This document shows, piece by piece, positions 1-14,000 of a stretch of DNA of 14,747 nucleotides; positions within the stretch are counted from its first letter, which is position 1; the number at the start of each line of letters is the position of its first letter. The notes under the pieces were generated by a model that saw only the letters and a program-made list of their open reading frames with translations, was not told the DNA's origin and searched no databases. The position numbers and the translations under genes are program-made. The stretch spans positions 1 through 14,747 of the forward strand of contig CAYRWY010000106.1 in NCBI GenBank assembly GCA_964427955.1, read 5' to 3'. This DNA is from an uncultured Anaerolineaceae bacterium (lineage in GTDB: Bacteria; Chloroflexota; Anaerolineae; Aggregatilineales; Aggregatilineaceae).

Positions 1-1690
1 CCATCGGTCGCCGTGTACGTGAAAGCGTCGCTGCCGCTGAAGCCTGCCGTCGGCGCATAGTCGAAGGAGCCATCCGGGTTGAGGTTGAGCGTGCCGTGCG
101 CCGGACCGCTGTCCAGCGCCGCTGTCAGCGGATCGCCGTCGGGATCGGTGTCGTTCGCCAGCACGCCCGGCGCGGCGATAGTCAGCGGAATGTCCTCCGC
201 CGTGGTATAGCCCTCCGCCACCGCCACCGGCACATCGTTCACGGCATTGACCGTGATCGTCACCGTGACGCCGCTGCTGTTAGCCGCGCCATCCGTGGCG
301 TGATACGTGAAACTGTCGCCGCCGTTGAAGTTGGCCGTCGGCGTATAGTCGAAGGAGCCATTCGGGTTGAAGTTGAGTGTGCCGTGCGCCGGACCGCTGT
401 CCAGCGCCGCCGTCAGCGGATCGCCGTCGAGATCGCTGTCGTTATTCAGCACGCCCGGCGCGGCGATGGTCAGCGGCGTATCCTCCGGCGTGGTATAGCC
501 CTCCGCCACCGCCACCGGCGCATCGTTCACGGCATTCACCGTGATCGTCACCGTGACGACGTTACCGCCGGTCGTGGCGTCGCTCGCGTGATAGGTGAAG
601 CTGTCGCCGCCGTTGAAATTGGCATTCGGCGTATACACGAAGGAGCCATCCGCGTTGAGCGCCAGCGTGCCGTGCACCGGACCGCTGTCCAGCGCCGCCG
701 TCAGCGGATCGCCGTCGAGATCGCTGTCATTGCCCAGCACGCCCGGCGCGGCGATGGTCAGCGGCGTATCCTCCGGCGTGGTATAGCCCTCCGCCACCGC
801 CACCGGCACATCGTTCACGGCATTGACCGTGATCGTCACCGTGACGCCGCTGCTGTTAGCCGCGCCATCCGTGGCGTGATACGTGAAACTGTCGCCGCCG
901 TTGAAGTTGGCCGTCGGCGTATAGTCGAAGGAGCCATTCGGGTTGAAGTTGAGTGTGCCGTGCGCCGGACCGCTGTCCAGCGCCGCCGTCAGCGGAGTGC
1001 CGTCGGGATCGCTGTCGTTACTCAGCACACCCGGTGCGGCGATGGTCAGCGGCGTATCCTCCGCTGTGGTATAGCCCTCGGCTATGGCCACCGGGGCATC
1101 GTTCACCGCCACAACTGTGATCATCACCAGGGCGACGTTACCGCCGGTCGTGCCATCCGTGGCGTGATACGTGAAACTGTCGCCGCCGTTGAAATTGGCA
1201 CTGGGCATATAGCTGAAGGAGCCATTCGGGTTGAGCGTCAGCGGGCCGTGCGTGGGATAGGTGTCCAGCACTGCCGTGATGGGATCGCCATCGGGATCGC
1301 TGTCATTATTCAGCAGGCCCGGCGCGGCGACGTTCAGCGGCGTGTCTTCCTGCACACTGTAACTGTTGGCCACGGCCATCGGCGCGTCGTTCACCGCACT
1401 GATGGTGATCGTCACCGTGGCGACACCGCTGTCAGCCAGGCCATCCGTGACGTGATACGTGAAACTGTCGCTGCCGGAATAATTGTAGCCCGACGTATAG
1501 CTGAAGGAGCCATTCGGGTTGAGCGTCAGTGCGCCGTAGGTGGTTCCGCTGTTCAGCACTGCCGTCATGGGATCGCCATCCGGATCGCTGTCATTGCCCA
1601 ACACACCCGGCGCGGCGATGGTCAGCGGTGTGTCCTCCGGCGTGGTGTAGGAGTTCCCCACGGCTGCCGGTGGACTATCGATGTCCAGGG
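1..1690. repeat. Intragenic tandem DNA repeat, period 288 bp (=96 aa), >=6 copies in the window and continuing past the window start. There is a 576-bp higher-order unit with near-identical non-adjacent copies
   Basis: The motif gagccatYcgggttga recurs at 67, 355, 643, 931, 1219 and 1507, exactly 288 bp apart. Positions 241-300 are identical to 817-876, and about 355-420 to 931-996, which is 576 bp apart. The antisense ORF (96..1961) translation repeats itself with a 192-aa period. Confidence 0.85.
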
Positions 1691-2276
1691 TCAGCGCCCA
1701 ACTATTGAGTGTGCCGGTGTTCATGGAGGAATAATCATACACGTACAGGGTCCATGTTCCGGCCACGGGTTGACCGTCGAAGGTGCTGAGCGGCTGTTGG
1801 GGCGTATAGGATGTCCCGGTGGGCGGATCGGCATCCTCGACGGGGCCGCCCGTCGACTCGTCATCCAGCAGCGTAATAATGTTATCGCTCGAAAAGAGGC
1901 AGCCATAGGGGTTAGGCCCTCCGGGCCGGTCCACGAGCGTGACGCTGATCCCGCCCGGTGAGACTAGCACGACTGCCAGGTCGCTGACCCAGGTATGAGT
2001 GATATTCAGGCTCACATTCACATCCCGGATGGGTCCATTCGTGGGCACGGTGATGGTGCTCACGGCTGGATCGCCGTGCCCGCTGTTGAGGCAGCCTGCT
2101 TCGGGGTCGTCGGCGATGAGCACCGCAGTGGTATTGGAGTACGTTACGACCGTGGAGAGAAGGTCGGCGGGTGGCCGGGAACGCTCATCGGCAGAAACGC
2201 TGTGTACCAGAGGGAGGGAAAAAAGGGCGATAAACACGATCACAAAGATTCTTCGGACGATAGTTAGCCACGACAT
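1..2276 (-). CDS. Secreted surface/adhesin-like protein, 3'-partial (C-terminus lies beyond the window start). Signal peptide + standalone proprotein-convertase-type P-domain + >=6 tandem ~96-aa cadherin-like (VCBS / 'tandem-95'-type) repeats
   Basis: Hand translation of the reverse complement from ATG (complement of cat at 2274-2276) gives MSWLTIVRRIFVIVFIALFSLPLVHSVSA|DE, a classic signal peptide. It is preceded on the minus strand by GGAAG about 8 nt upstream. The next ~190 aa carry P-domain hallmarks (NVSLNITHTWVSDLAVVLVSPGGISVTLVDRPGG ... GTWTLYVYDYSSMNTGTLNSWALTL). They are followed by repeats of the form VNDAPVAVAEGYTTPEDTPLTIAAPGVLxNDSDxDGDPLTAALDSGPAHGTLNxNPNGSFDYTPTANFNGGDSFTYHATDG. 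The frame stays open to position 1. The ORF track does not list it because it lists only ORFs with both a start and a stop inside the window. Confidence 0.8.
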   Translation of the reverse strand, partial: MSWLTIVRRIFVIVFIALFSLPLVHSVSADERSRPPADLLSTVVTYSNTTAVLIADDPEAGCLNSGHGDPAVSTITVPTNGPIRDVNVSLNITHTWVSDLAVVLVSPGGISVTLVDRPGGPNPYGCLFSSDNIITLLDDESTGGPVEDADPPTGTSYTPQQPLSTFDGQPVAGTWTLYVYDYSSMNTGTLNSWALTLDIDSPPAAVGNSYTTPEDTPLTIAAPGVLGNDSDPDGDPMTAVLNSGTTYGALTLNPNGSFSYTSGYNYSGSDSFTYHVTDGLADSGVATVTITISAVNDAPMAVANSYSVQEDTPLNVAAPGLLNNDSDPDGDPITAVLDTYPTHGPLTLNPNGSFSYMPSANFNGGDSFTYHATDGTTGGNVALVMITVVAVNDAPVAIAEGYTTAEDTPLTIAAPGVLSNDSDPDGTPLTAALDSGPAHGTLNFNPNGSFDYTPTANFNGGDSFTYHATDGAANSSGVTVTITVNAVNDVPVAVAEGYTTPEDTPLTIAAPGVLGNDSDLDGDPLTAALDSGPVHGTLALNADGSFVYTPNANFNGGDSFTYHASDATTGGNVVTVTITVNAVNDAPVAVAEGYTTPEDTPLTIAAPGVLNNDSDLDGDPLTAALDSGPAHGTLNFNPNGSFDYTPTANFNGGDSFTYHATDGAANSSGVTVTITVNAVNDVPVAVAEGYTTAEDIPLTIAAPGVLANDTDPDGDPLTAALDSGPAHGTLNLNPDGSFDYAPTAGFSGSDAFTYTATD

Positions 2277-2374
2277 ACGGTAATCTTCCTTGTTGAGAAT
2301 TTGACACGTAAGCGGGCTGGTATGAGCAGGATATGCGGCAACGGCGAGGATTGAAAGTGCCAGACCAGTTGCCC

Positions 2375-2383
2375 ATCAGTATA
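2375..2383 (-). promoter_or_regulatory. Candidate extended -10 (TGaTATACT on the minus strand) for the adhesin-like gene, about 100 nt upstream of its ATG
   Basis: The plus-strand agtatatca, reverse-complemented, reads TGATATACT. No convincing -35 was found. Confidence 0.3.
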
Positions 2384-2429
2384 TCACTAATAACTCCCCG
2401 GTCCAAAGCAAATCAGGGATTTCGAGCGG

Positions 2430-2457
2430 GCCGTCACACGTGCTGCAAATGTGATAC
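2430..2457 (+). promoter_or_regulatory. Candidate sigma70-type promoter for the DinG-like gene: -35-like GTCACA, 16-bp spacer, extended -10 TGaTACAAT
   Basis: tgatacaat at 2449-2457, about 50 nt upstream of ATG 2507. GGAG lies 6 nt before that ATG. Confidence 0.4.
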
Positions 2458-2506
2458 AATAGCGCCTTCCAGCACGGTGCTTGATCGTCTAGAAACGGAG
2501 TCTGTC

Positions 2507-5311
2507 ATGCGCGAGGTGTTCGTCACTCTGGACCTGGAGACCACCGGTCTCAACGCGGAGGAAGATGCCATCATCGAAGTGGGGGCCGCCCGGTTCCAGG
2601 CCGGCAAGGTGCTCGACACCTTCAGCACATTGATCAATCCGGGTCGCAGCGTGCCGGATCGCGTCACCGCCATTACCGGCATTCGCACCGAGGACCTGGT
2701 CGGCAAGCCGTCCATCCGCCAGGTGATCGGCGATCTGCGCGAGTTCGTGGGCAGCCATCCCATCGTCGGACATCGCATCGACTTCGATCTCAGCTTCCTG
2801 AGCAGCTACGGCGTCGGATCGGGCAATCTTGCGATTGACACCTACGACCTGGCCTCGGTCATGCTGCCGACTGCGCCGCGTTATAACTTGAACAGTCTGA
2901 CCAGCCAGGTCGGCCTGGAACTCGAACACGCCCACCGCGCCCTGGACGATGCCACGGCCACCGGGCAGTTGTACTGGGTCCTCTGGGAGCGCATCCTGGC
3001 CCTGCCGCTGGACACGCTGCAAGAGATCGTCGAAGCCTCGCGCGACATCGAATGGAGCGCCGGATCGGTTTTCGTCGCGGCCTTGCAGGAGCGCAGCAAG
3101 ACGGCCCTCACCGGCCAGCCGGCCCGCCGTGCCCCGGTGGAGAACGTCGAAGACCTCTTCAAGCCGGATCGTAAGCCCTGGGCCCCGCTGCGCCCGAATG
3201 CCGATCTCAAGCTGCTGGACGTGGAGCAGTTGGCCGGGCTGATCGAGGAAGATGGCCGGATAGCGCAGGCTTTCCCCGGCTACGAGCACCGCCCGCAGCA
3301 GGTCGAGATGCTGCGCAAAGTGGCCGAAGCCTTTAACGAGGGCGAGCACCTGATGGTCGAAGCGCCGACCGGCGTCGGCAAGAGCATGGCCTACCTGCTG
3401 CCCGCGCTCTATTGGGCCACCCAGAACAACGAGCGGGTGGTGATCAGCACCAACACCATCAATTTGCAGGATCAATTGATCAACAAGGATCTGCCGGGCC
3501 TGTCCGACGCGCTGGGGCTGGCGTTCCGCGCCGCCGTGCTCAAGGGCCGCGGCAATTACCTCTGCCCGCGCCGCCTGCTGACGCTGCGCCGCCGCACGCC
3601 GACTTCGATCTCCGAGCTGCGCGTGCTGGCCAAGATCCTGGTCTGGCTGCTGGAATCGGATACCGGCGACAAGGGCGAACTCACCCTGCGCGGCCTGGAA
3701 GAGAACGCGATCTGGTCCCGGCTGAGCGCGGAGGACGAAGGCTGCACGCTGGAGCGCTGCGGCGACCAGATGCACGGCGCCTGCCCGTTTTACAAGGCCC
3801 GCCGCGCGGCGGAATCCGCGCACGTGATCGTCGTCAACCATGCGCTGCTGCTGGCCGACGTCCAGATCGGCAGCCGCGTCGTGCCCGAATACCAGTACCT
3901 GATCGTGGACGAAGCGCACCACCTGGAAGAAGCGACCACCAACGGGCTGTCCTTCTCGATCAATCAGGCCACCTTGCAGCGCCGCCTGGACGACCTGGGC
4001 GGGATGCGCCGGGGGCTGCTGGGCGACGTGCTGCGCAGCACGCGCGGCAGCGTGCCGGGCAAATACTTCACCCAGATCGAGAGCTACGTCCAGATCGTCA
4101 GCGAGGCGCTGGAGGCGATGGGCCGCCACGCCGAACGCTTCTTCGAGATTCTCTACCGTTTCCTGGAAAGCACCGGGGAATTGAAGCCGGGTGAATATTC
4201 CAGCCAGGTGCGCATTACCGACGCGCTGCGCCACCAGCCGCAGTGGGGGCAGGTGGAAGAAGGCTGGGACCTGCTCAGCCAGTTCACGCAGGCGATTTCG
4301 TCGGCGATGGCCCGCCTGGCGAAAGGGTTGGCCGGGCTGAATGAGTTCGACGTGCCGAACTTCGACGATCTGCTGTCCAGCGTCCAGGCGGCGGCGCGCC
4401 ACCTGGAAGAAGTGCACCGCCAGTTGGGCGCGTTTTCAATCAGCCCCCAGGACAACGTGATCTACTGGGTGCAGGTCGATCAGGACGGCACGCGGCTGTC
4501 GATCCACGCCGCGCCGCTGCACGTCGGCCCGCTGCTGGAACAGCACCTCTGGACGGCCAAGCGGTCGGTGATCCTGACCAGCGCCACGCTGCGCACCGGC
4601 GGCACCTTCGAGTACGTGCGCGACCGGCTGAACGCCTTCGAGGTGGTCGAAGCCGTGGTCGGCTCGCCCTTCGATTATGAAAAGAGCACGCTGGTCTACG
4701 TCCCGACCGACATGCCCGATCCCAGCCGCCGTGACGATTACCAGCGCGCCGTCGAGCGCGGCCTGATCGAGCTGGCAGCGGCCACGCGCGGACGCTTGCT
4801 CGGCCTGTTCACCAGCTACGCCCAGCTCCGCCAGACCGCCCAGAACATCGCGCCCCGGCTGGCGCTGGGCAACATCACCGTCTTCGACCAGAGCGACGGC
4901 ACCAGCCGCCAGGCCTTGTTGGACGGCTTCGTCAAGACCGAGCGATCCGTGCTGTTGGGCACGCGCTCGTTCTGGGAAGGCGTGGACATCCCCGGCCAGG
5001 ACCTTAGCGCCCTGGTGATCGTCCGGCTGCCGTTCGCCGTGCCCAGCGAGCCGGTTTTCGCCGCGCGCTCCGAGCAGTACGACGACAGCTTCATGAACTA
5101 CGCCGTGCCGGATGCCGTGCTGCGCTTCCGCCAGGGCTTCGGGCGGCTGATCCGCACCAAGACGGATCGCGGCGTGGTCGTGTTGTTCGACAGCCGCGTG
5201 ATCACCAAGAAGTACGGGCAGGTCTTTCTCGACAGCCTGCCGGGCTGCACGCTGCGGCGCGGTCCGCTGGCTGAACTGCCGCGCGCGGCGGTGGAATGGA
5301 TTGGGGATTAG
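2507..5311 (+). CDS. dinG: DinG-family protein: N-terminal DnaQ-like DEDDh 3'-5' exonuclease fused to a DinG/Rad3-type Fe-S ATP-dependent DNA helicase (Firmicutes-type DinG architecture)
   Basis: Start taken at MREVFVTLDLETTGL (Exo I motif at the very N-terminus), not the track's 2333 start. Exo II is HRIDFDLSFL and Exo III is HRALDDATATG. Walker A is MVEAPTGVGKSMAYLLPA and the DEAH box is LIVDEAHHLEE. A four-Cys cluster (LCPRR ... CTLERCGDQMHGACPFY) resembles the XPD/DinG Fe-S domain. The C-terminal helicase motifs and the stop at 5309-5311 complete the gene. Confidence 0.9.
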   Translation: MREVFVTLDLETTGLNAEEDAIIEVGAARFQAGKVLDTFSTLINPGRSVPDRVTAITGIRTEDLVGKPSIRQVIGDLREFVGSHPIVGHRIDFDLSFLSSYGVGSGNLAIDTYDLASVMLPTAPRYNLNSLTSQVGLELEHAHRALDDATATGQLYWVLWERILALPLDTLQEIVEASRDIEWSAGSVFVAALQERSKTALTGQPARRAPVENVEDLFKPDRKPWAPLRPNADLKLLDVEQLAGLIEEDGRIAQAFPGYEHRPQQVEMLRKVAEAFNEGEHLMVEAPTGVGKSMAYLLPALYWATQNNERVVISTNTINLQDQLINKDLPGLSDALGLAFRAAVLKGRGNYLCPRRLLTLRRRTPTSISELRVLAKILVWLLESDTGDKGELTLRGLEENAIWSRLSAEDEGCTLERCGDQMHGACPFYKARRAAESAHVIVVNHALLLADVQIGSRVVPEYQYLIVDEAHHLEEATTNGLSFSINQATLQRRLDDLGGMRRGLLGDVLRSTRGSVPGKYFTQIESYVQIVSEALEAMGRHAERFFEILYRFLESTGELKPGEYSSQVRITDALRHQPQWGQVEEGWDLLSQFTQAISSAMARLAKGLAGLNEFDVPNFDDLLSSVQAAARHLEEVHRQLGAFSISPQDNVIYWVQVDQDGTRLSIHAAPLHVGPLLEQHLWTAKRSVILTSATLRTGGTFEYVRDRLNAFEVVEAVVGSPFDYEKSTLVYVPTDMPDPSRRDDYQRAVERGLIELAAATRGRLLGLFTSYAQLRQTAQNIAPRLALGNITVFDQSDGTSRQALLDGFVKTERSVLLGTRSFWEGVDIPGQDLSALVIVRLPFAVPSEPVFAARSEQYDDSFMNYAVPDAVLRFRQGFGRLIRTKTDRGVVVLFDSRVITKKYGQVFLDSLPGCTLRRGPLAELPRAAVEWIGD

Positions 5312-6528
5312 GCGGCGTGCGTAGGCGTCTGAATCCGAACAGTGCGCGAATCCTGGTCTTCCAGTCGCTGTTCAATTTCGGCAACAGCTTCTCGGCACTG
5401 TTCGTCAACATCTACCTGTGGCGGCTGAAGTCCGATCTGCAACCCATCGCGATCTACAACTTCTGCTCGTATGCCGCGATCATGGTCTTTTCGCTGGTGT
5501 GCGGCAAGCTGATCCAGCACCGGGGCGAGGTCTTCTGCCTGCGCACCGGGATCACCCTGTACACGGTGTTCTACATCACCATTCTGTCGCTGGGCACGCA
5601 CGCCGGGAGCTACCTGGTGCCGCTGGGCCTGCTGTCCGGGCTGGCCGCAGCGACGCTGTTCATGGGCTTCAACACGCTCATCCCGCACCTGACGCCCAAC
5701 GATGATCGCGACTTTTTCTTCGGCGTGCTGACGGCTATCTCCGGCCTGGGCGCGATTGTGATCCAGCCGTCGTCCGGCTTCATCATCAATCACTTTTCCG
5801 GCCTCCAGGGCTATTCGATCATCTTCAGCCTGACGCTGGGGCTTTTCCTGACGGCCATCGGCGTCACCTTCTTGCTGAAGCCCAGCCCGGATCGCGAAGT
5901 GTTTCACGTCGTGGAACTGGCGCGGGCCTACCGGGACAGCCGTCCCTGGCGTGGGGTAGGGCTGTCGCTGTTCATTTCGTCGATGCGCGGCGGTATCTAC
6001 AGCTTCTTGATCACGATCCTGGTCTACGTCGCCTTCAAGAACGAATGGGGCGTGGGCAAATACTCGATGGTCATGTCGGCGGTATCGCTGGGCGCAGCCC
6101 TGACGGTGGGGCGGACTCTGACCAGGGAGAAACGCATCCAGTATTACTTCGTGGGTACCCTGGTCTCGTTCCTCGCGGCGCTGATCCTGGTGTCCTGGTC
6201 GCGGCCTGCGGGCTTCATCCTCTACGGGCTGCTGTTCAATGCCTCGACGTCGAGCCGCGACATTCCCAACAACACCATCTCCTATGAAGTGGTCGATGAT
6301 CTCTTCCGGGAGCGCGGCAAGCGGTTTACTTACGTGATCGGGCGCGAGGTGCCCATCGGCCTGGGGCGGCTGACCAGCATTCTGCTCCTGCTGATTCTGT
6401 ACCAGTCGTTGCAGAGCGACACGGCGATCAAGATCATGATCCCCACCGTGGCCGGGATCGAACTCCTCAATGTGTTCGTATTCCGCTGGATCAGGACCGA
6501 ACGTGCGCGAAGGTTAGAGTATAGTTAA
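5296..6528 (+). CDS. Polytopic membrane protein, probably an MFS-type transporter (about 12 predicted TM helices in a 6+6 arrangement with a central loop)
   Basis: Track ORF of 410 aa. I count 12 hydrophobic segments, and there is a cytoplasmic loop around SPDREVFHVVELARAYRDSRPWRG. The start is ambiguous. ATG 5296 overlaps the dinG stop by 16 nt and has a poor RBS. GTG 5317 has GGGGA about 9 nt upstream and would give VRRRLNPNS.... I do not recognise the family beyond MFS-like topology. Confidence 0.7.
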   Translation: MDWGLGGVRRRLNPNSARILVFQSLFNFGNSFSALFVNIYLWRLKSDLQPIAIYNFCSYAAIMVFSLVCGKLIQHRGEVFCLRTGITLYTVFYITILSLGTHAGSYLVPLGLLSGLAAATLFMGFNTLIPHLTPNDDRDFFFGVLTAISGLGAIVIQPSSGFIINHFSGLQGYSIIFSLTLGLFLTAIGVTFLLKPSPDREVFHVVELARAYRDSRPWRGVGLSLFISSMRGGIYSFLITILVYVAFKNEWGVGKYSMVMSAVSLGAALTVGRTLTREKRIQYYFVGTLVSFLAALILVSWSRPAGFILYGLLFNASTSSRDIPNNTISYEVVDDLFRERGKRFTYVIGREVPIGLGRLTSILLLLILYQSLQSDTAIKIMIPTVAGIELLNVFVFRWIRTERARRLEYS

Positions 6529-6543
6529 TAGTCGTTAAAAGAT

Positions 6544-6572
6544 CGACATAATTCCTGATTTGAGAGTATAAT
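6544..6572 (+). promoter_or_regulatory. Sigma70-like promoter for sensor kinase 1: -35 TCGACA (6544-6549), 17-bp spacer, -10 TATAAT (6567-6572)
   Basis: The hexamers are read directly from the sequence. The ATG at 6608 has GGGGA 5 nt upstream. Confidence 0.5.
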
Positions 6573-6607
6573 TCAAATGCTCGTTAGAGAATCTGACCTG
6601 GGGAACT

Positions 6608-7699
6608 ATGTCTCATACAACGCTGCCTGCCTCCAAGCTCTCCCTGCCTTTTGATCTGGTGGCCGGGGTTCTGGATGTGCTTCCCAATATTTTCCTGGTG
6701 CTCGACGGCCAGCGCCGCGTGGTACTCGCGAACCGTGCGCTGCTCGACCTGCTCGGCCTGGCAGACGATCACGCGATCCTGGGTCGCCGGACCGGCGATC
6801 TGCTGAACTGCGTCCACGCGGACGAAACGTCCGACGGCTGCGGTTCGACCGAAGCGTGTCGGGTCTGTGGCGCGCTGACGGCCATCCTGGCCAGTCTCCG
6901 CGGCAGCAGCAGCGTCTCCGAATGCCGCATCCGGCAGAAGGGGGGCGGCGCGCTCGATCTGCGCGTGACCTCTTCGCCGCTGTTGGTCGCCGGGGAACGT
7001 TACTCTCTGGTAGTTTTCGAGGACATCGGCGACGAAAAGCGCCGCGCCGTGCTGGAACAGGTCTTCTTTCACGACATTCTCAACCTGGCCGGTGTCATGA
7101 CCGGCTACGCCTCTCTGCTGCGCGATCTGAGCGACGGCACCCCGCAGTCTAACAGCTTCAAGGAAAAGCTCTATCAGGCGTCCATCCGCCTGGTGGACGA
7201 GATCCAGATGCAGCGCGATCTCGCCGCCGCCGAACATGGCGAGCTGACCCTGAATCCGGCCTCGATCCGGTCGCGTGCGTTTCTGGCGAACGTCCAGGAC
7301 TGCTACCAGGTGCACGAAGCTGCCCGCGAGCGCCGCATCCTGCTCGATCCCGACTCCCAGGACGTGGAATTTGACAGCGATCCGGTCCTGCTCGAACGGG
7401 TCCTGGGCAACCTGGTCAAAAACGCGCTGGAAGCCATCCCCCCCGGCCAGGCCGTCACGCTGCGCTGCTGGACCGATGAGGAACGGGTGGTCTTCGAGGT
7501 CCACAACCCCAGTACCATGCCGCGCGACGTGCAGCTTCAGATCTTTCAGCGGTCGTTTTCCACCAAGGGCAAGGGGCGCGGGCTGGGGACGTACAGCGTC
7601 AAGCTGCTCTCCGAACGCTACCTGGGCGGCGCGGTGACGTTCACCACCTCGCCCGACCGGGGCACCACCTTCCAGGCCGCCTATCCCCTGGCGCGCTAG
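6608..7699 (+). CDS. Cytoplasmic sensor histidine kinase: N-terminal PAS-like domain with a Cys4 motif, then DHp (phosphoacceptor His in FFHDILNLAG), then HATPase_c
   Basis: No TM segments. The PAS-like stretch (NIFLVLDGQRRVVLANRALLDLLGL ... DLRVTSSPLLVAGERYSLVVFEDIGDEKR) contains NCVHADETSDGCGSTEACRVCGA. The N box is LERVLGNLVKNALEA. The G boxes are FQRSFSTKGKGRGLGTYSVKL. There is no receiver domain. Confidence 0.9.
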   Translation: MSHTTLPASKLSLPFDLVAGVLDVLPNIFLVLDGQRRVVLANRALLDLLGLADDHAILGRRTGDLLNCVHADETSDGCGSTEACRVCGALTAILASLRGSSSVSECRIRQKGGGALDLRVTSSPLLVAGERYSLVVFEDIGDEKRRAVLEQVFFHDILNLAGVMTGYASLLRDLSDGTPQSNSFKEKLYQASIRLVDEIQMQRDLAAAEHGELTLNPASIRSRAFLANVQDCYQVHEAARERRILLDPDSQDVEFDSDPVLLERVLGNLVKNALEAIPPGQAVTLRCWTDEERVVFEVHNPSTMPRDVQLQIFQRSFSTKGKGRGLGTYSVKLLSERYLGGAVTFTTSPDRGTTFQAAYPLAR

Positions 7700-7740
7700 C
7701 CCTGTTCATGAGAGTATCGTGAGAACGTCGTGCTCCGAGG

Positions 7741-7746
7741 TATAAT
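7741..7746 (+). promoter_or_regulatory. Candidate -10 TATAAT for sensor kinase 2, about 40 nt upstream of ATG 7786; the -35 is weak
   Basis: ggtataataaa read directly from the sequence. AGGA lies about 9 nt before ATG 7786. Confidence 0.35.
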
Positions 7747-7785
7747 AAATCCGTGCCGCATAGCTTAGCTGCCAGGAATGTTGGG

Positions 7786-8943
7786 ATGTCCGAACCCTCG
7801 CTCCTTACGACTGAATTTGCTCCGCCCGAACGCGCCGCGCAGGGCGAACTGGAGCAGCAGATTCAGTATTTCGCCACCATCAAGAATCTGGCCGACTTTC
7901 TGAATGCCGTCCCGAACGTGTTTCTGGTACTCAACGCGCACCGCCAGACTGTCTTCGCCAACCAGGCACTGTTGGAGACGCTCGGTCTATCGGACGCGCA
8001 GTGCATCTGGGGCAAGCGGCCCGGCGAGATTCTGAACTGCATCCATGCCCAGGAGAACGAGGCCGGGTGCGGAACGACCGAATTCTGCCGGACGTGCGGC
8101 GCTGTGCAGACTATCCTGGCCGGGCTGCAAGGTGGTTCGATGGTGTCCGAGTGCCGGATCACCCAGCAGAGCGGCAACGCGCTGGACCTGCGTGTCTCAG
8201 GCGCGCCGTTTGTGGCGAATGGGCACACGTTCTGCCTGTTTGCGGTCGAGGACATCAGCAGCGAAAAGCGCCGGACCGTGTTGGAGCACCTGTTCTTCCA
8301 CGATATTCTTAATCTCGCCGGGGTGCTGCTGGGCTATTCCGAGATGCTGACCGAGGGGCTAGACACGAGCAGCCCGGCGGTCCAGTTGGCCCAGACGATG
8401 TATCAGGCCACCATCCGCCTGATCGATGAGATCAAGAGCCAGCGGGAGCTGGTCGCCGCCGAACGCGGCGATCTGACGCCCCGGCCCGCCCCGGTCGAAG
8501 CCCGGTCGTTTCTGGACAACATCCGCGAGTTCTACCAGGCTCACGAAATCGCCACCCAGCGCCAGGTGCGGATCGGTCCGCAGGTCGAGGATGTCCTGTT
8601 TGAGTGCGATCCGGCCCTGCTCGAACGGGTCCTGGGCAACCTGACCAAAAACGCCCTGGAAGCCGTCTCGCCGGGCGAGGCCGTAACGCTGGCCTGCCGC
8701 CGGGCGGGGGACCAGGTGATCTTCACCGTGCACAACCCCACGGTGATGCCGCGCGAGGTCCAGCTCCAGGTGTTCCAGCGGTCGTTTTCGACCAAAGAAC
8801 GGGGACACGGGCTGGGCACCTACAGCGTCAAGCTGTTCACCGAACGCTATCTGGGGGGCCGCGTGACGTTCAGTTCGATCCCGGTGGAAGGGACGTGCTT
8901 TACGGTCGCGCTTCCCGTACAGCCTTCGTACCTGCGGGGCTAG
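7786..8943 (+). CDS. Cytoplasmic sensor histidine kinase, paralog of 6608..7699, with the same PAS-like Cys4 motif and the same DHp/CA motifs
   Basis: NCIHAQENEAGCGTTEFCRTCGA, FFHDILNLAGV, LERVLGNLTKNALEA and FQRSFSTKERGHGLGTYSVKL are colinear with kinase 1. I prefer ATG 7786 (MSEPSLLTTEF...) over the track's GTG 7753 because of the RBS and promoter spacing; both are possible. The 25-aa N-terminal extension relative to kinase 1 is real either way. Confidence 0.85.
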   Translation: MSEPSLLTTEFAPPERAAQGELEQQIQYFATIKNLADFLNAVPNVFLVLNAHRQTVFANQALLETLGLSDAQCIWGKRPGEILNCIHAQENEAGCGTTEFCRTCGAVQTILAGLQGGSMVSECRITQQSGNALDLRVSGAPFVANGHTFCLFAVEDISSEKRRTVLEHLFFHDILNLAGVLLGYSEMLTEGLDTSSPAVQLAQTMYQATIRLIDEIKSQRELVAAERGDLTPRPAPVEARSFLDNIREFYQAHEIATQRQVRIGPQVEDVLFECDPALLERVLGNLTKNALEAVSPGEAVTLACRRAGDQVIFTVHNPTVMPREVQLQVFQRSFSTKERGHGLGTYSVKLFTERYLGGRVTFSSIPVEGTCFTVALPVQPSYLRG

Positions 8944-8960
8944 ATTGGGTTTTGGAACAG

Positions 8961-8969
8961 TGGTATAAT
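8961..8969 (+). promoter_or_regulatory. Extended -10 promoter element TGgTATAAT for efp
   Basis: cagtggtataatgg, about 68 nt upstream of ATG 9037. Confidence 0.4.
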
Positions 8970-9036
8970 GGCGTGCCGTGAACACAGTGGCCGGGAATCG
9001 CATGGGCCAGAGCGGCAAGGATAAGAGAAACCTCCT

Positions 9037-9594
9037 ATGATTGATGTAAATCAGCTTCGTAAAGGCACTAATTTCACCTACGACGGTGAGCTTTACAAGG
9101 TGTTGGATTACCAGCACATTAAGCCGGGCCGCGGCAATGCGACCATCCGCGTGGGCGTGCGCAATCTGCGCTCCGGGGCCACGCGCGAGATGACCTTCAC
9201 GTCGGGTGACCGGGTGGAAGACATCCGCATCGACACGACGGTGGTGGAATACCTGTTTGCGGACGATGAATTCATCACCTTCATGGACGTGGAAACTTAC
9301 GAGCAGCCGCAACTGCGCCGCGACCTGTTCGGCGATGATTTCCTGTACCTCAAGGAAAACATGCAGCTCAAGCTGCTGAGCTATGGGTCCGAGATCATCG
9401 ACTACGAGCTGCCTGCCAACGTCGATCTGAAAATCGTCGATGCCGAGATGGCCATCGCGGGCAACACCGCGACCGGCGCGACCAAAAAAGTGGTCTGCGA
9501 AACCGGTCTACAGGTGACCGTTCCGCTGTTCGTCAACGTGGGCGACACCATTCGCGTCGACACGCGCGACCGCTCGTACGTCACACGCGTCTAA
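9037..9594 (+). CDS. efp: Translation elongation factor P
   Basis: The 185-aa product aligns end to end with bacterial EF-P. Matching segments include MIDVNQLRKGTNFTYDGELYKVLDYQHIKPGRGNA, GDTATGATKKV and VPLFVNVGDTIRVDTRDRSYV. The conserved loop reads KPGRG, not KPGKG. Confidence 0.95.
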   Translation: MIDVNQLRKGTNFTYDGELYKVLDYQHIKPGRGNATIRVGVRNLRSGATREMTFTSGDRVEDIRIDTTVVEYLFADDEFITFMDVETYEQPQLRRDLFGDDFLYLKENMQLKLLSYGSEIIDYELPANVDLKIVDAEMAIAGNTATGATKKVVCETGLQVTVPLFVNVGDTIRVDTRDRSYVTRV

Positions 9595-9607
9595 TGGAGC
9601 ACACGAT

Positions 9608-9692
9608 TGGAATTCGCATGATCGGTAAGGGTTGTTAGTTTTTAGTTGTAAAAACTAACCACTAAAAACCAATAACATGGTGCGAATTCTAT
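9608..9692. repeat. AT-rich structured element: a 9-bp inverted repeat (GAATTCGCA ... TGCGAATTC, each with an EcoRI site) flanking a perfect 11-bp stem / 4-nt loop hairpin (GTTAGTTTTTA gttg TAAAAACTAAC, about 9634..9659)
   Basis: Read directly from the sequence. The region is strongly AT-rich against a roughly 65% GC background. It has no following T-run, so it is not a canonical intrinsic terminator. Confidence 0.6.
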
Positions 9693-9734
9693 TTGTTTTC
9701 TCCATAAGCCCGACGTGTCAAAAGCATATCTTGA

Positions 9735-9764
9735 AAGGCCGGCTCGTGTTCCGGTCTTTTTTGT
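9735..9764 (+). terminator. Candidate intrinsic terminator for efp: stem GGCCGG / CCGGUC (one G-U pair), 8-nt loop, then UUUUUU
   Basis: aaaggccggctcgtgttccggtcttttttgtt. The stem is short, so the call is moderate to weak. Confidence 0.4.
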
Positions 9765-9789
9765 TAAGAAGTGGCAGTCCTGCTAGTAT
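9760..9789 (+). promoter_or_regulatory. Near-consensus sigma70-like promoter: -35 TTGTTA, 17-bp spacer, -10 TAGTAT. It probably drives the 9823..13179 gene group
   Basis: ttgttaagaagtggcagtcctgctagtatcg. The -10 sits about 35 nt upstream of ATG 9823. It overlaps small inverted repeats (tcctgc..gcagga, ggcag..ctgcc) that could be an operator. Confidence 0.5.
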
Positions 9790-9822
9790 CGCTGGCAGGA
9801 TCATCTGCCTGGGAGATTGCTT

Positions 9823-10179
9823 ATGCGGACACCTGCGGGTAAAGAGTGCCCTCATTATTACGAAGACTTCATGCGCGGGCGGCACGTGCAAGAGTGCCGC
9901 CTGGCCAAAGAGAACTCCGAGTCGCTGCGCTGGAAGGCGGGCGACTGCGCGAAATGCCCCGTGCCGGAGATTTTGCAGGCCAACGCCAGCCCGGACATGG
10001 AACTGACTCTCACCATCCGGGGGGCGCTGCTGGGCTTTGTGCGCCAGATGAAGGTCACGGCGCGCTGCCTCAAGCACGACCGCCCGATTGACAATCCCTA
10101 CGTCGGCTGTCCGCTGGACGCCGAAGAAAATGACGCCCTGCGCCTGTTCAAAGACGCGCTGGAAAAGTCCGACGAGTAG
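9823..10179 (+). CDS. Small (about 119 aa) Cys-rich hypothetical protein, possibly a zinc-ribbon-like metal-binding protein
   Basis: I take the ATG at 9823, within track ORF 9817..10179. The product is MRTPAGKECPHYYEDFMRGRHVQECRLAKENSESLRWKAGDCAKCPVPEIL...ARCLKH...VGCPLD (CP-x-YY, EC, DCAKCP). I do not recognise the family. The CDS call rests on the promoter, a frame track-confirmed from 9817 to the stop, and tight coupling to the next gene. Confidence 0.55.
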   Translation: MRTPAGKECPHYYEDFMRGRHVQECRLAKENSESLRWKAGDCAKCPVPEILQANASPDMELTLTIRGALLGFVRQMKVTARCLKHDRPIDNPYVGCPLDAEENDALRLFKDALEKSDE

Positions 10180-10196
10180 AAAAACGGAGGGTTGCG

Positions 10197-11231
10197 ATGC
10201 TTCATCCTACACTGGACGACTGGCGTAATCTGTATGGGCTGATGGATCGTGTGAAGACGCTGGCTCCCTGGCGTTGGATGAATGAAGACGCTATCTTCAG
10301 CGTGCAGAATCCCGACGGCGGAGAACAGGGGTACGTGAGCGTGATGGGGACGCTCGGCGAGCACCTGGCCATCAGCGTGTACCTGGGGGCGCGGGGCCTG
10401 TCCGGCTTCTGGAGTATGCAGGAGGCTGGTCCGGCGATTCAACCGGAGCGGCTGTTCGAAATTCCGCAGCTTCAGGCGTCGTTCGAGGATCGGGATCAGC
10501 TCGACGACCACGACCGTGCGAATATCAAAGAGCTTGGCCTCAAATATCGCGGCAAACAGGCCTGGCCGCACTTTCGCAGCTACCGCCCCAGCTTTGTCCC
10601 CTGGTATCTGGAGCAGGCCGAAGCGCGCTTCCTGGCGGCGATCCTGGAACAACTGCTGGACGTTGCTCCCCGTTACCAGTTGAATCACGCCCTGTTCCGC
10701 GGACCCACGCGCGATCATTATCTGTGCCGCGTACCGCGCGGCAGCGGGGATAGCCGCACCTGGGAGGACCAGTTCATCGTACCGGCGCAGGAGGAAACGG
10801 TCGGCCTCAACCTGCGCATGAACCTGGAGGCGCTGAACTATTTGAAGAAACTGCCGCCCACCCGGCAGCAGGTCGAGATCGACCTGTTCATGCTGCTGTC
10901 CGGCGTTCGGGAAAAAGGCGAGGATGCTCGTCCTTACTTCCCGTCCGTGCTGCTGACCCTGGACGTGCGCAGTAAGATGGTGATCGGGACCGAAATGATT
11001 CCCCCGCTGCCCACCCTGGAAAGTGTGTATGAGCAGACCCCGGGCTATGTCGTGACCCAACTGGCGCAGGCGGGCTTGCGTCCGGGCGTCGTCACGGTGC
11101 GCCACGATATGCTGTATCAGGTTTTGGGGCCGATCTCCAAAGAACTGGGCTTCAAGCTGATCAAGCGTCGCCATCTCCCCAATCTGGACAAGGCGAGGAT
11201 GTCGCTGATGCAGTGGATGGGCGTCTACTAG
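10197..11231 (+). CDS. Hypothetical soluble 344-aa protein of unrecognised family
   Basis: GGAGG lies 8 nt upstream of the ATG, and the gap to the upstream gene is 17 nt (operonic). No TM segments or nucleotide-binding motifs are apparent. There is an acidic patch (EDRDQLDDHDRANIKELGLKYRGKQAWPHFRSYRPSF). Confidence 0.75.
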   Translation: MLHPTLDDWRNLYGLMDRVKTLAPWRWMNEDAIFSVQNPDGGEQGYVSVMGTLGEHLAISVYLGARGLSGFWSMQEAGPAIQPERLFEIPQLQASFEDRDQLDDHDRANIKELGLKYRGKQAWPHFRSYRPSFVPWYLEQAEARFLAAILEQLLDVAPRYQLNHALFRGPTRDHYLCRVPRGSGDSRTWEDQFIVPAQEETVGLNLRMNLEALNYLKKLPPTRQQVEIDLFMLLSGVREKGEDARPYFPSVLLTLDVRSKMVIGTEMIPPLPTLESVYEQTPGYVVTQLAQAGLRPGVVTVRHDMLYQVLGPISKELGFKLIKRRHLPNLDKARMSLMQWMGVY

Positions 11232-11237
11232 CCCCCT

Positions 11238-11266
11238 GTCAGATGAGTGTCAGATGAGTGTCAGAT
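11238..11266. repeat. Perfect tandem direct repeat GTCAGATGAGT x2.6 (11-bp unit), immediately after the 10197..11231 stop and about 90 bp upstream of the flotillin start
   Basis: ctgtcagatgagtgtcagatgagtgtcagataaaa read directly from the sequence. The 11-bp period is about one helical turn. Confidence 0.85.
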
Positions 11267-11355
11267 AAAAATCGGGTCAACCACGCCGTTCGCGGTAAGC
11301 TTAGGATCGGTGTTGTGTTTTCCTAACTGGGCGGCATCCAACTGGAGGTGGCCCC

Positions 11356-13179
11356 ATGTCTGATTTTCTTCCGATCTTATGTCTGGCAGGACTGGCCGTA
11401 CTGCTGTTGTTTGTGCTGGCCTTTTCCCGTGTGATCCTGGGACTGGTCATCATCAACGAGCGGCAGGTCGGCGTGGTGATCAAGAAACTCTCCCGGCACA
11501 GTCTCCCCGCCGGGCAGTTCGTCGCGCTGAATGGGGAAGCGGGCTACCAGGCCGATACGCTGGCTCCCGGCTGGCATTTCTGGCGCTGGCCCTGGGTCTA
11601 CACCGTCCAGAAAGCCCCGGTGATCGTCGTACCGCAGGGCGAGATCGCGCTGGTGGTCGCCGCCGACGGCGTGTCGATCCCGCCGGAGCGCATCCTGGGC
11701 CGCATCGTCCCCTGCGATAACTTTCAGGACGCCCGCAAGTTCCTGATGAAGGGGGGCGAAAAAGGCCGCCAGTTGGGGATTCTGACCGCCGGGACGTATC
11801 GCATCAACCGCGCATTGTTCAACGTCATCACGGCGGAAACGGCCCGTGAAAATGGCATGGCTCCCGAACTGCTCCAGGTCCACCGCGTCGCGCCGGATCG
11901 CGTCGGGATCGTGACGACCCTGGACGGGATGCCCATCGAGCAGGGCGAGATCGCCGGGCCGATTGTCGAGGGCCACGATAACTTCCAGAACGCGCAGAAC
12001 TTCATCGCGGCGGGCGGGCGGCGTGGCTTGCAGGAGCAAATTCTGCTGTCCGGCGCGTGGAACCTGAACCCCTGGTTCGTGCAGGTCGAGCAGGTGCCCA
12101 TGACCGAAATTCCCATCGGCTACGTCGGCGTCGTGATCTCGTATGTCGGCAAGGCACACGAGGACGTCAGCGGCGCGGAATTCAAGCACGGCGATCTGGT
12201 CAATGCCGGGCACAAGGGTGTGTGGGTGACCCCGCTCTATCCCGGCAAGCACCCGATCAACAACCGGGTCATGAAGACCGAGCTGGTCCCGACGACCAAT
12301 ATCGTGCTCAACTGGGCGGATCGCACCGAGGCGCACAACTATGACGCCAAGCTGTCGTCGATCACCGTGCGCTCGCGGGACGGCTTCGCCTTCGACCTGG
12401 AAGTCTCGCAGATCATTCACGTCGGGGCGTTGGATGCGCCGAAGGTGATCTCGCGCGTCGGCTCGATGCAAAATCTGGTCGATCACGTGTTGCAGCCCAT
12501 CGTCGGCAACTACTTCCGCAACGCGGCACAGAACTACACCGTGCTCGACTTTCTGATCGCGCGCAGCGAGCGCCAGTCGGAAGCCGCGCAGCACATCCGC
12601 GAGGCGATTGGGCTGTACGACGTGCAGGCGATTGACACCCTGATCGGCCACATCACACCGCCCGAAGCGCTGATGCAAACCCTGACCGACCGCAAGATCG
12701 CGGAGGAACAGCGCAAAACCTACGAGGTCCAGCAGGAAGCGCAGACCCAGCGCCAGCAGTTGGTCCGCGAAACGTCGATGGCCGACATCCAGCAGCAGAT
12801 GGTCAAGTCGGAGCAGGGCGTGAACATTGCCGGGCTGGACGCCGATGCCCGCATCAAGCAGGCGACCGGCGAGGCCGAATCGATCAAACTGCGCGCGGCG
12901 GCGGATGCCGAAGCGATCCGGATCACCGGCGTGGCGAAGGCGCAGACCTACAAACTGGGCGCGCAGGCGCTCGGCGCGCAGAGCTACACCGCGCTCCAGT
13001 TGATGCAGTTGGTGGGCGAGAACCAGATTCGCGTCGTGCCCGATGTCGCCGTCAGCGGCAGCGCCGGGGGCGGCGGCCTGGTCGATGCGCTGATCGGCAT
13101 GATGCTGCGCAACCGTGTCGGCGGCGATGGCGACGTCTCGCAGGTCTTCGTCGATCCGGACAAACCGGCGGCTGGCTAA
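11356..13179 (+). CDS. SPFH/Band-7 domain flotillin-family membrane protein (FloT/YqiK-like)
   Basis: N-terminal TM segment (FLPILCLAGLAVLLLFVLAF). The SPFH-like region has the duplicated motif GxxIVxxxDNFQxAxxFxxxGG. The C-terminus is an Ala/Glu/Gln-rich coiled coil with flotillin-type repeats (IKQATGEAESIKLRAAADAEAIRITGVAKAQTYKLGAQALGAQSY). The RBS is GGAGGTGG. Confidence 0.9.
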   Translation: MSDFLPILCLAGLAVLLLFVLAFSRVILGLVIINERQVGVVIKKLSRHSLPAGQFVALNGEAGYQADTLAPGWHFWRWPWVYTVQKAPVIVVPQGEIALVVAADGVSIPPERILGRIVPCDNFQDARKFLMKGGEKGRQLGILTAGTYRINRALFNVITAETARENGMAPELLQVHRVAPDRVGIVTTLDGMPIEQGEIAGPIVEGHDNFQNAQNFIAAGGRRGLQEQILLSGAWNLNPWFVQVEQVPMTEIPIGYVGVVISYVGKAHEDVSGAEFKHGDLVNAGHKGVWVTPLYPGKHPINNRVMKTELVPTTNIVLNWADRTEAHNYDAKLSSITVRSRDGFAFDLEVSQIIHVGALDAPKVISRVGSMQNLVDHVLQPIVGNYFRNAAQNYTVLDFLIARSERQSEAAQHIREAIGLYDVQAIDTLIGHITPPEALMQTLTDRKIAEEQRKTYEVQQEAQTQRQQLVRETSMADIQQQMVKSEQGVNIAGLDADARIKQATGEAESIKLRAAADAEAIRITGVAKAQTYKLGAQALGAQSYTALQLMQLVGENQIRVVPDVAVSGSAGGGGLVDALIGMMLRNRVGGDGDVSQVFVDPDKPAAG

Positions 13180-13200
13180 TCTCCCATTCGATTTCGACAC

Positions 13201-13244
13201 AAAAAACGGCGGCTCTCCACCCGGAGGGCCGCCGCTGTTTTTAT
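13201..13244. terminator. Bidirectional rho-independent terminator shared by the convergent flotillin (+) and pilin-like (-) genes
   Basis: aaaaaa CGGCGGCTCTCC accc GGAGGGCCGCCG ctgttttta. It has a 12-bp GC-rich stem with one mismatch, an A-run 5' and a T-run 3'. Confidence 0.7.
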
Positions 13245-13259
13245 TCCCGTGCTGCGCGA

Positions 13260-13733
13260 TCAGGGGACATTGGCCTTGATGGTGCATTTCCCGGTGTTGC
13301 CGTCCGCATCATAGGCCACGGCGGCGAACTCATGCGGCCCCTTGGATCCGGTATAGGGATCGCAGGCCGCATCCCCGCCGATCAGGCAGTAGCGGTAGTG
13401 GACCTCGTTGTTGCGGGGGATGCCATCGACATAGAACTGGACATTCGTGATGTTGTTTTCCCCGACGTTGTCGGTCACCTGCGCTTCGAGTCGGAAGGGG
13501 GAGTTGGAGACGATGTTACAGCTCACGTCCAGTGCCACGCAGAAGGGGGCATCGATATTCGGATCGATTGAAAAGGCCGCTTTGCAGTAGGTCTTTTGCA
13601 CCCGATCCCCGAAGAAGGACGCGATCAGAATGACGACGACCGCGACCAGGATCAGGATCAGGGCATATTCGACCAGCCCCTGACCCCGTTCCCTTATTCT
13701 GGGCTTACCGTCTTTTTCCTTATGTGGTTCCAT
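13260..13733 (-). CDS. Prepilin-type (class III signal peptide) Flp/TadE-like pilin or pseudopilin-like protein with a 6-Cys C-terminal globular domain
   Basis: MEPHKEKDGKPRIRERG|QGLVEYALILILVAVVVILIASFF has a basic leader, the G/XXXXEY processing motif with E at +5, and a hydrophobic helix. The C-terminal roughly 110 aa contain six Cys (YCK, FCVALDVSC, YCLIGGDAAC, GKC). GAGG lies 6 nt upstream on the minus strand. Confidence 0.8.
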   Translation of the reverse strand: MEPHKEKDGKPRIRERGQGLVEYALILILVAVVVILIASFFGDRVQKTYCKAAFSIDPNIDAPFCVALDVSCNIVSNSPFRLEAQVTDNVGENNITNVQFYVDGIPRNNEVHYRYCLIGGDAACDPYTGSKGPHEFAAVAYDADGNTGKCTIKANVP

Positions 13734-13777
13734 AAGACCTCACAGATGATAGATAAATTACCGGACGACATAATCTC

Positions 13778-13783
13778 ATTATA
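13778..13783 (-). promoter_or_regulatory. Candidate -10 TATAAT (minus strand) for the pilin-like gene, about 45 nt upstream of its ATG
   Basis: The plus-strand attata at 13778-13783, reverse-complemented, reads TATAAT. Confidence 0.35.
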
Positions 13784-13844
13784 CGTTGATTTCGCGGCGA
13801 AAATGAACTGTATGTAAATTCTTACCAAACTTGATGAATGAGTT

Positions 13845-13874
13845 AATAAAAAAGCCCGGTCGGGGGGACCGGGC
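13845..13874 (-). terminator. Terminator-like hairpin oriented on the minus strand: GCCCGGTC ggggg GACCGGGC, an 8-bp perfect stem followed on the minus strand by UUUUUUAUU
   Basis: aataaaaaagcccggtcggggggaccgggcgg read directly from the sequence. It lies inside the divergent intergenic region, upstream of the pilin-like gene's putative promoter. Confidence 0.5.
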
Positions 13875-14000
13875 GGAATCGCTTGGCGAGTATGAAACTA
13901 CTGTACCTCGTTCTCGTGCACCGCGCCAATTTTTGGGCGATTATTCCGGCATCGAGCAGCGATAATATTCCCTAACGTTTACCGGAGAAAGGGGTTAACC

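Follow-up and report, generated by a model that had tools for sequence, protein, structure and literature searches.

What do two adjacent soluble histidine kinases detect when each carries four cysteines at the same spacing in its sensor domain and no response regulator gene accompanies them? The two genes are located on a 14,747 nt contig from an uncultured Anaerolineaceae bacterium (CAYRWY010000106.1, positions 1–14,747, here called the window). The first, K1, is at positions 6608–7699 on the plus strand and encodes a cysteine-containing PAS histidine kinase of 363 aa, as determined by translation and Pfam; exactly the same protein has been called on a 3.8-kb Joint Genome Institute (JGI) contig, L046. 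The second, K2 (7786–8943, plus strand), encodes a paralogous kinase of 385 aa counted from ATG 7786, as supported by translation, BLASTP and a public gene call. Both proteins consist of an N-cap, a PAS domain, a dimerization and histidine phosphotransfer (DHp) hairpin and a catalytic domain. Sequence comparisons point, with moderate confidence, to K1 and K2 being PAS sensors of redox state or oxygen with a predicted iron-sulfur (Fe-S) or redox-active iron cofactor. The family to which they belong probably senses redox state or oxygen by way of a bound Fe-S cluster or metal ion.

The cysteine motif of K1 is at positions 6809–6868 (plus strand) and reads NCVHADETSDGCGSTEACRVCGA. It consists of C68-x9-C78-G-x4-C84-x2-C87 followed by G88, and the Cys codons begin at 6809, 6839, 6857 and 6866. 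The aligned segment of K2 (8038–8097, plus strand) reads NCIHAQENEAGCGTTEFCRTCGA and has the pattern C-x9-CG-x4-C-x2-C, with Cys codons at 8038, 8068, 8086 and 8095. Both proteins keep the spacing C-x9-C-x5-C-x2-C without deviation. All conservation counts given here are from 296 non-identical homologs. C68, C78, G79, C84 and C87 are each invariant (296/296), and the exact Cys spacing is present in 146 of the 150 best library matches, the other four differing solely in the first spacer. An earlier reading of this DNA, termed here the original prediction, had proposed a strict motif of four cysteines plus a His and had named conservation in orthologs as a point to check. The four cysteines pass this check, and the His does not: H70 is kept in 261 of the homologs (88%). 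A fifth, near-invariant cysteine had been overlooked. This is C106 (286/296), which is in the middle of strand Gβ in the segment SECRI (6923–6925, plus strand; strand 102–110 in the models) and aligns with a Cys at 8152–8154 (plus strand) in K2. Its neighbors E105 and R107 are present in 288/296 and 268/296 sequences. In both archaeal (Asgard) copies Thr replaces C106 and the four core cysteines are kept. The near-invariant polar residues of the PAS domain, apart from the cysteines, are R36, Q37, N42, R61, E64, E105, R107 and D117. A c-type heme site (CxxCH) was considered and rejected, as no His follows C87; the position is G88 in 293/296.

Structure modeling shows where these cysteines are located. 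An AlphaFold2 model of the sensor (K1 residues 12–151, built on 115 homologs) has a mean predicted local distance difference test (pLDDT) score of 95.6, and the full-length K1 model has a score of 89.4; the models match canonical PAS and kinase structures. The PAS core comprises residues 28–139 (6689–7024, plus strand) and is preceded by an N-cap helix (residues 15–23). The elements in order are strands Aβ (28–32) and Bβ (37–41), helices at 43–49 and 62–65, a 17-residue coil, a short helix (83–86), Fα (88–97), Gβ (102–110), Hβ (115–127) and Iβ (130–139). The five-stranded antiparallel sheet, the helices Cα to Fα and a profile match identify this as a PAS domain, which answers the profile search proposed for the sensor region. 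The Pfam PAS match is weak and is above the cutoff in K1 only; K2 matches PAS_8 with 18 bits, below the cutoff. The first motif cysteine, C68, comes immediately after Eα; C78 belongs to the coil, C84 and C87 mark the N-terminal end of Fα, and the fifth cysteine, C106, is mid-Gβ. The motif is found in the Eα-Fα segment and the start of Fα, which is the cofactor region of LOV, FixL, NreB and OrpR, and it had been correctly assigned to the usual cofactor position of the PAS fold. A mean-field coupling analysis (296 sequences, Meff 244), which is noisy and blind to the invariant cysteines, pairs the loop residues T81 and A83 with the sheet residues L32 and V135. This pairing suggests that the Cys loop packs on the inner face of the sheet and fills the PAS core rather than protruding from it.

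The family is large and widely distributed. A profile search with the sensor region in 1.84 billion proteins returned 1726 cluster representatives (50% identity) at E ≤ 1e-30 and 3674 at E ≤ 1e-10, and a second profile search returned at least 5088 clusters at 90% identity; when the K1 sensor alone was the query of a word-indexed search, the yield was 2 proteins. A genome scan yielded 43 full-length homologs that are 33–55% identical to K1. They are from Anaerolineae, Bacteroidota/Ignavibacteria/Kryptoniota, Acidobacteriota, Desulfobacterota, Planctomycetota, Spirochaetota, Lentisphaerota/Victivallales, Marinimicrobia, Eisenbacteria, Firmicutes and two Asgard (Promethearchaeota) metagenome-assembled genomes (MAGs), such that the family spans more than 10 bacterial phyla and Asgard archaea. 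Most of the homologs are from lineages of anoxic habitats, i.e., Anaerolineae, Ignavibacteria, Sedimentisphaerales, Desulfatiglandales, Spirochaetales, Victivallales and Asgard. The only named isolates with a homolog in the genome scan are Heliobacterium mobile and Desulforamulus aquiferis, both strict anaerobes. A tblastn search of plasmids with the sensor gave no match. Database names for family members are generic or wrong, e.g., 'signal transduction histidine kinase', 'PAS domain-containing sensor histidine kinase' and 'HAMP domain-containing...'. No description of the motif or of the family in PAS kinases was found in the literature, where coverage excluded most subscription journals.

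The chemistry of the site can be considered in light of these data. As four cysteines and the adjoining Gly are invariant at fixed spacing, the motif is expected to be a coordination site and not a thiol switch. A metal-free, reversible thiol/disulfide (or persulfide) switch, which would report cytoplasmic thiol redox or reactive sulfur species, is improbable. The close pair C84-x2-C87 can form a redox-active disulfide, and Cys-based switches in sensor kinases and sulfane-sulfur sensors have reportedly been reviewed; however, two cysteines usually suffice for a switch and other spacings drift, whereas here all four and the Gly are fixed throughout the 296 sequences. An Fe-S cofactor is favored because C78-x5-C84-x2-C87 together with the distal Cys resembles the putidaredoxin/Fdx-type [2Fe-2S] consensus, because the Cys ligands of NreB and OrpR occupy the same region of the PAS domain, and because the taxa are dominated by lineages of anoxic habitats. 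Several observations weigh against this reading. The spacing that recalls ferredoxins is confined to a short motif, and the folds differ. No Fe-S- or redox-related gene is a conserved neighbor at the 43 loci. The homologs are also found in Acidobacteriota (Terriglobia, Bryobacterales) and in Pirellulales MAGs, which are not uniformly anaerobic, and the genome scan, with one genome per species and a few peptide patterns from K1, gives a biased taxonomic sample. In addition, a Cys4 site that includes a CxxCG knuckle very often holds structural zinc.

This last point leads to the main rival, a structural Zn(II) bound by the four cysteines, which we consider possible but doubtful. The zinc would stiffen the enlarged Eα-Fα loop without a sensory role of its own, and what the kinase detects would be a partner protein or a small ligand of the PAS pocket. 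Zinc knuckles typically show features like the CxxCG and the GCG turn found here, and the Eα-Fα loop, 14 residues long, has no regular secondary structure yet has a pLDDT above 90, as is often the case in rigid metal-clamped loops. The other near-invariant polar residues of the PAS domain could serve in ligand binding or signaling, and some of the lineages with family members are not strict anaerobes, which also fits with structural zinc. On the other hand, two CxxC pairs are usual in zinc ribbons and only one is present here, the near-invariant fifth Cys on Gβ faces the same region, the motif is at the PAS cofactor position and not in a peripheral insertion, and the taxonomic spread leans toward anoxic habitats. 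The original prediction also raised the possibility of metal sensing. In one form of this reading, the Cys4 site would carry nothing at rest and would detect soft metals (Zn, Cd, Cu(I), Hg, As(III)) directly, the kinases being cytoplasmic sensors of metal stress. Thiolate-rich sites do bind thiophilic metals, but no gene for metal efflux, sequestration or resistance is a conserved neighbor at the 43 loci, the neighbors in the window are an MFS transporter, elongation factor P (EF-P) and DinG, and uniform conservation over more than 10 phyla suits a housekeeping signal more than a niche metal. This explanation is very unlikely.

With an Fe-S cofactor as the preferred reading, a mechanism can be proposed. 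The Cys thiolates would ligate an Fe-S cluster within the PAS core. Judged by the C-x5-C-x2-C signature, this would be of the [2Fe-2S] type, with [4Fe-4S] or mononuclear Fe as further possibilities. If the cluster were oxidized, nitrosylated or lost, in response to O2, NO, redox potential or the supply of iron or sulfur, the Fα/Gβ face would be reshaped. The signal would cross the conserved junction between Iβ and the helix (D139-I-x-x-EKRR) into the DHp coiled coil, a route suggested by the model and by known PAS kinases (FixL, YF1). The resulting change in the DHp would switch autophosphorylation at H155 in K1 and at the equivalent His in K2, and the phosphoryl group would pass to a response regulator whose gene lies at another genomic locus. 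K1 and K2 may be tuned differently, K1 having lost the N-terminal [FY]APAER motif. A broader and more speculative proposal, which we put forward only tentatively, is that the family represents a pan-phylum Fe-S input module. A ferredoxin-like [2Fe-2S] loop in the PAS core would be hard-wired to one kinase core and would serve as a general cytoplasmic sensor of redox state or O2 (or of Fe-S status) in anoxic lineages, with unlinked regulators; the duplicated pair would provide two thresholds or a heterodimer, as K1 is without [FY]APAER.

The kinase portion of both proteins has the domain features of a class I histidine kinase. In the K1 model, Iβ runs via D139-I-G-D-E-K-R-R directly into DHp helix 1. 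The DHp hairpin (residues 141–209; 7028–7234, plus strand) consists of helix 1 (141–173) and helix 2 (179–209) and carries the H-box FFHDILN with the phospho-acceptor H155 (7070–7072), conserved in 290/296; the His aligned with it in K2 is at 8299–8301 (plus strand). The catalytic ATP-binding domain (residues 218–360; 7259–7687, plus strand) is matched by Pfam HATPase_c with an E value of 9e-17 and 61.9 bits (cutoff 26.4), and the corresponding K2 score is 57.5 bits. It is a GHKL domain in which N268 and N272 of the N-box and the G2 box GRGLG are conserved. The full-length K1 model superposes on the DHp and catalytic cores of DivL, HK853 and KinB; the ATP lid (residues 317–324) has low pLDDT. 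The kinase core is canonical apart from the G1 box. Instead of DxGxG there is a family-wide V-H-N-P-x-x-M-P (7499–7522, plus strand, K1 residues 298–305, and the equivalent stretch in K2), with N300 in 291/296. It looks like an unusual, family-specific nucleotide-binding variant, in a domain that HATPase_c still matches with a good score. No Pfam HisKA model matches K1 or K2, and an NCBIfam search gave nothing but sub-threshold matches to assorted kinases, with no curated model reaching its cutoff. A sequence search of solved structures matched the kinase core and left the sensor unmatched.

No membrane segment is present in K1 or K2 by hydropathy and by the model. The top hydropathy window of K1 (1.77, residues 13–32) was considered as a membrane anchor and rejected; the segment is the PAS N-cap helix and strand Aβ, modeled with pLDDT above 90. 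K1 and K2 have 56% aa sequence identity over 344 aa (BLASTP, E 6e-147), and at the DNA level there is a 300-nt direct repeat with 73% identity and a spacing of 1229 nt. The two genes are the tandem paralogs for soluble kinases that had been described. When compared with the homologs from the 43 loci, K1 and K2 are mutual best matches, and there is no second tandem pair at any other of these loci. Single copies elsewhere and the mutual best match indicate that the pair is a lineage-specific, fairly old tandem duplication and not a trait of the family.

The K2 ORF (open reading frame) also opens upstream at GTG 7753, which would give 396 aa. The public gene call on the identical 3.8-kb JGI contig starts K2 at ATG 7786 (385 aa). 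This ATG is preceded by an AGGAA ribosome-binding site, and the -10 box at 7741–7746 is too near GTG 7753. As these three observations agree, ATG 7786 is the most likely start. K2 has the N-terminal motif FAPPER (7816–7833, plus strand), where the family consensus is [FY]APAER, conserved at 90% or more in family alignment A3. The longer form, T-x-[FY]-A-P-A-E-R, is found in most members including K2, usually 74 residues before the first Cys; a strict regular expression matches 165/296 sequences. The [FY]APAER segment is absent at the N-terminus of K1 (checked over 6608–6680). It might be a sensor cap or a DHp contact. Two minus-strand ORFs that overlap the kinases, 6584–7504 and 8359–9312, were treated as shadow ORFs of high-GC DNA; the latter is without a Pfam match.

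The next question is where the phosphoryl group would go. No receiver domain was found in the window by Pfam on 14 ORFs or with a receiver-domain hidden Markov model on all ORFs of at least 50 aa, in agreement with the original prediction. Clustering of the neighbors at the 43 loci reveals no conserved partner gene across phyla; shared neighbors other than receiver proteins represent synteny among close Planctomycetota. Receiver-domain genes are present within a few kb at 8 to about ten of the 43 loci, and the encoded proteins are unrelated in output: receiver only, receiver-GGDEF, two receiver-ParA/MinD-like ATPases and OmpR-type. The nearest relative on a long contig is alone amid housekeeping genes. 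Overall, the family has the character of an orphan kinase with a regulator that appears to be unlinked. Of the branched or orphan phosphorelay that had been suggested, the orphan part fits most of the family; the branched part is speculation, as the pairing is peculiar to this lineage.

Members of the family are almost always 360–400 aa in length, and 18 of the 296 sampled (~6%) have at least 500 aa. Pfam analysis of 8 long members shows a C-terminal receiver domain in 2 and a receiver plus Hpt in 2 (P0009, P0032, P0051, P0060), and kinase-receiver fusions of ~520 aa recur among the matches listed from the second profile search. These fusions lend indirect support to a real phosphorelay, and the receiver and receiver-Hpt fusions imply a multistep phosphorelay in that subclass, as judged from domain content. 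In an Anaerolineaceae MAG (locus L005), two tandem genes for receiver-ParA/MinD-like ATPases (2338–3555 and 3556–4770) are 32 nt downstream of the kinase. Proteins of this type are a possible output for the family in Chloroflexota. The Asgard members are full-length genes on Promethearchaeota MAG contigs, at 9908–11044 (locus L013) and 9902–11044 (L016). At L013 the kinase adjoins the anaerobic ribonucleotide reductase NrdD, and the contig also encodes a Ras-family GTPase and zinc-ribbon proteins.

Promoter-like sites precede both kinase genes, as had been claimed for each paralog. The site before K1 is TCGACA-18-TATAAT (6543–6572, plus strand), with 11/12 matches to the consensus and identified by consensus match only; that before K2 is GTGAGA-16-TATAAT (7719–7746, plus strand), with 10/12 matches. 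Since no terminator-like site separates K1 and K2, read-through and co-transcription are possible. The sequence GTATAAT occurs four times in the window, which is 62% G+C, where 0.3 occurrences are expected. It is found at 6566–6572, 7740–7746 and 8963–8969 on the plus strand and at 13778–13784 on the minus strand. Every copy is 34–68 nt upstream of an ORF start, i.e., K1, K2, efp and a minus-strand ORF at 13260–13733. GTATAAT looks like a strong, uniform -10 element of the host organism.

The kinases are flanked in the window by genes that Pfam identifies as an MFS transporter, EF-P and DinG, and DinG, MFS, K1, K2 and efp are on one shared strand. The dinG gene (2333–5311) encodes a DnaQ-exonuclease/DinG-helicase fusion of 992 aa and overlaps the start of the MFS gene (5296–6528) by 16 nt. 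The EF-P is closest to Chloroflexota/Anaerolineae proteins, with 78–81% identity to the named ones including that of Aggregatilinea lenta; an exact look-up of this EF-P returned no entry. Neither Pfam nor NCBIfam matches three plus-strand ORFs, 96–1961 (621 aa), 1995–2267 (90 aa) and 9677–10006 (109 aa). The longest of them is located where the window is richest in G+C (0.66) and is a candidate gene for a novel protein. Downstream on the plus strand are a gene for a DUF7309+DUF6930 protein (10197–11231) and one for a 607-aa SPFH/Band-7 protein (11356–13179). The ORFs antisense to these two genes, 10098–11174 and 11377–13287, are shadow ORFs expected in high-GC DNA. Scans for Rfam families and tRNA genes in the window were negative.

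To our knowledge few PAS domains with Fe-S clusters have been described (NreB, AirS, OrpR), each confined to a narrow group of organisms. The present family has thousands of members in more than 10 bacterial phyla and Asgard archaea, with 40–55% identity between phyla over the full length and an invariant Cys motif, yet it has no name or curated model. If its members bind a cluster, they would be among the most widespread cytoplasmic redox/O2 sensors of two-component signaling in these lineages. The protein is compact and soluble, with ~380 aa, and is easy to test. If the unlinked regulator were identified, many little-studied lineages would gain a conserved regulatory circuit, and the receiver domains of the fusion proteins could guide the search for the partner of the stand-alone kinases.

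Comparison with known systems places the motif among several types of metal and cofactor sites. In ferredoxins, a Gly follows the first Cys and Thr often precedes the third; compare the segment CGTTEFCRTCG of the present motif. Ferredoxins with a [2Fe-2S] cluster of the putidaredoxin/Fdx type share the consensus Cys-X5-Cys-X2-Cys-Xn-Cys (PMC3827102, PMC8928951). C78-x5-C84-x2-C87-x18-C106 follows this adrenodoxin/putidaredoxin/Fdx pattern in its first spacings, but its Xn of 18 is below that of every listed ferredoxin subtype (27–82). The resemblance is at the level of the motif only: the fold of K1/K2 is PAS and not the β-grasp of ferredoxins, and the upstream C68 is without a ferredoxin counterpart. 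A compact four-Cys motif of another spacing, C-X5-C-X8-C-X2-C, binds [2Fe-2S] in Fep1 (PMC4992955). The second half of the motif had been likened to a rubredoxin knuckle. One CxxCG is indeed present, and the adrenodoxin/putidaredoxin-type C-x5-C-x2-C fits at least as well. Unlike a rubredoxin or zinc ribbon, K1 and K2 have this single CxxCG, with the other two cysteines 9 and 5 residues apart and the whole motif embedded in the PAS domain. K1 and K2 also differ from the heme kinase FixL, the flavin kinases LOV-HK and YF1, and the FAD kinases MmoS and NifL in that the heme or flavin ligand residues are absent and the segment that lines the pocket is replaced by the Cys loop.

The closest precedents are NreB and OrpR. 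In NreB of Staphylococcus and Bacillus licheniformis, cluster ligands include Cys63, 66 and 78, next to α2 at 79–82; the cysteines are located between Bβ and a short helix before Gβ, and the Fe-S cluster reports O2 or sulfide (PMC13478379). Like NreB, K1 and K2 are soluble kinases with an N-terminal PAS domain and several cysteines within ~20 residues in the same topological region, and the naming of NreB as a precedent with different Cys spacing was fair in terms of function. The spacing is C-x2-C-x11-C-x2-C in NreB and C-x9-C-x5-C-x2-C in K1/K2. NreB is described with a HisKA_3-type DHp, via the DesK HisKA_3 structure 3GIG (PMC13478379), whereas the H-box of K1 and K2 is FFHDILN, their core can be superposed on kinases of the HisKA type and no HisKA_3 match was obtained; an NreB model is absent from the NCBIfam results for K1 and K2. 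The nreB gene adjoins nreC (PMC9918477), and K1 and K2 are without an adjacent regulator. OrpR has a [4Fe-4S] cluster with ligands C52, C61 and C65 in an N-terminal PAS domain and senses redox potential in anaerobes (PMC8359166). The conserved cysteines in an N-terminal PAS domain and the occurrence in anaerobes are shared with K1/K2, but OrpR is a sigma-54 enhancer-binding protein and not a kinase, has three cysteines with x8/x3 spacing and belongs to a family confined to Deltaproteobacteria. From their sequences, K1 and K2 are placed nearest in function to NreB and OrpR, as members of neither family.

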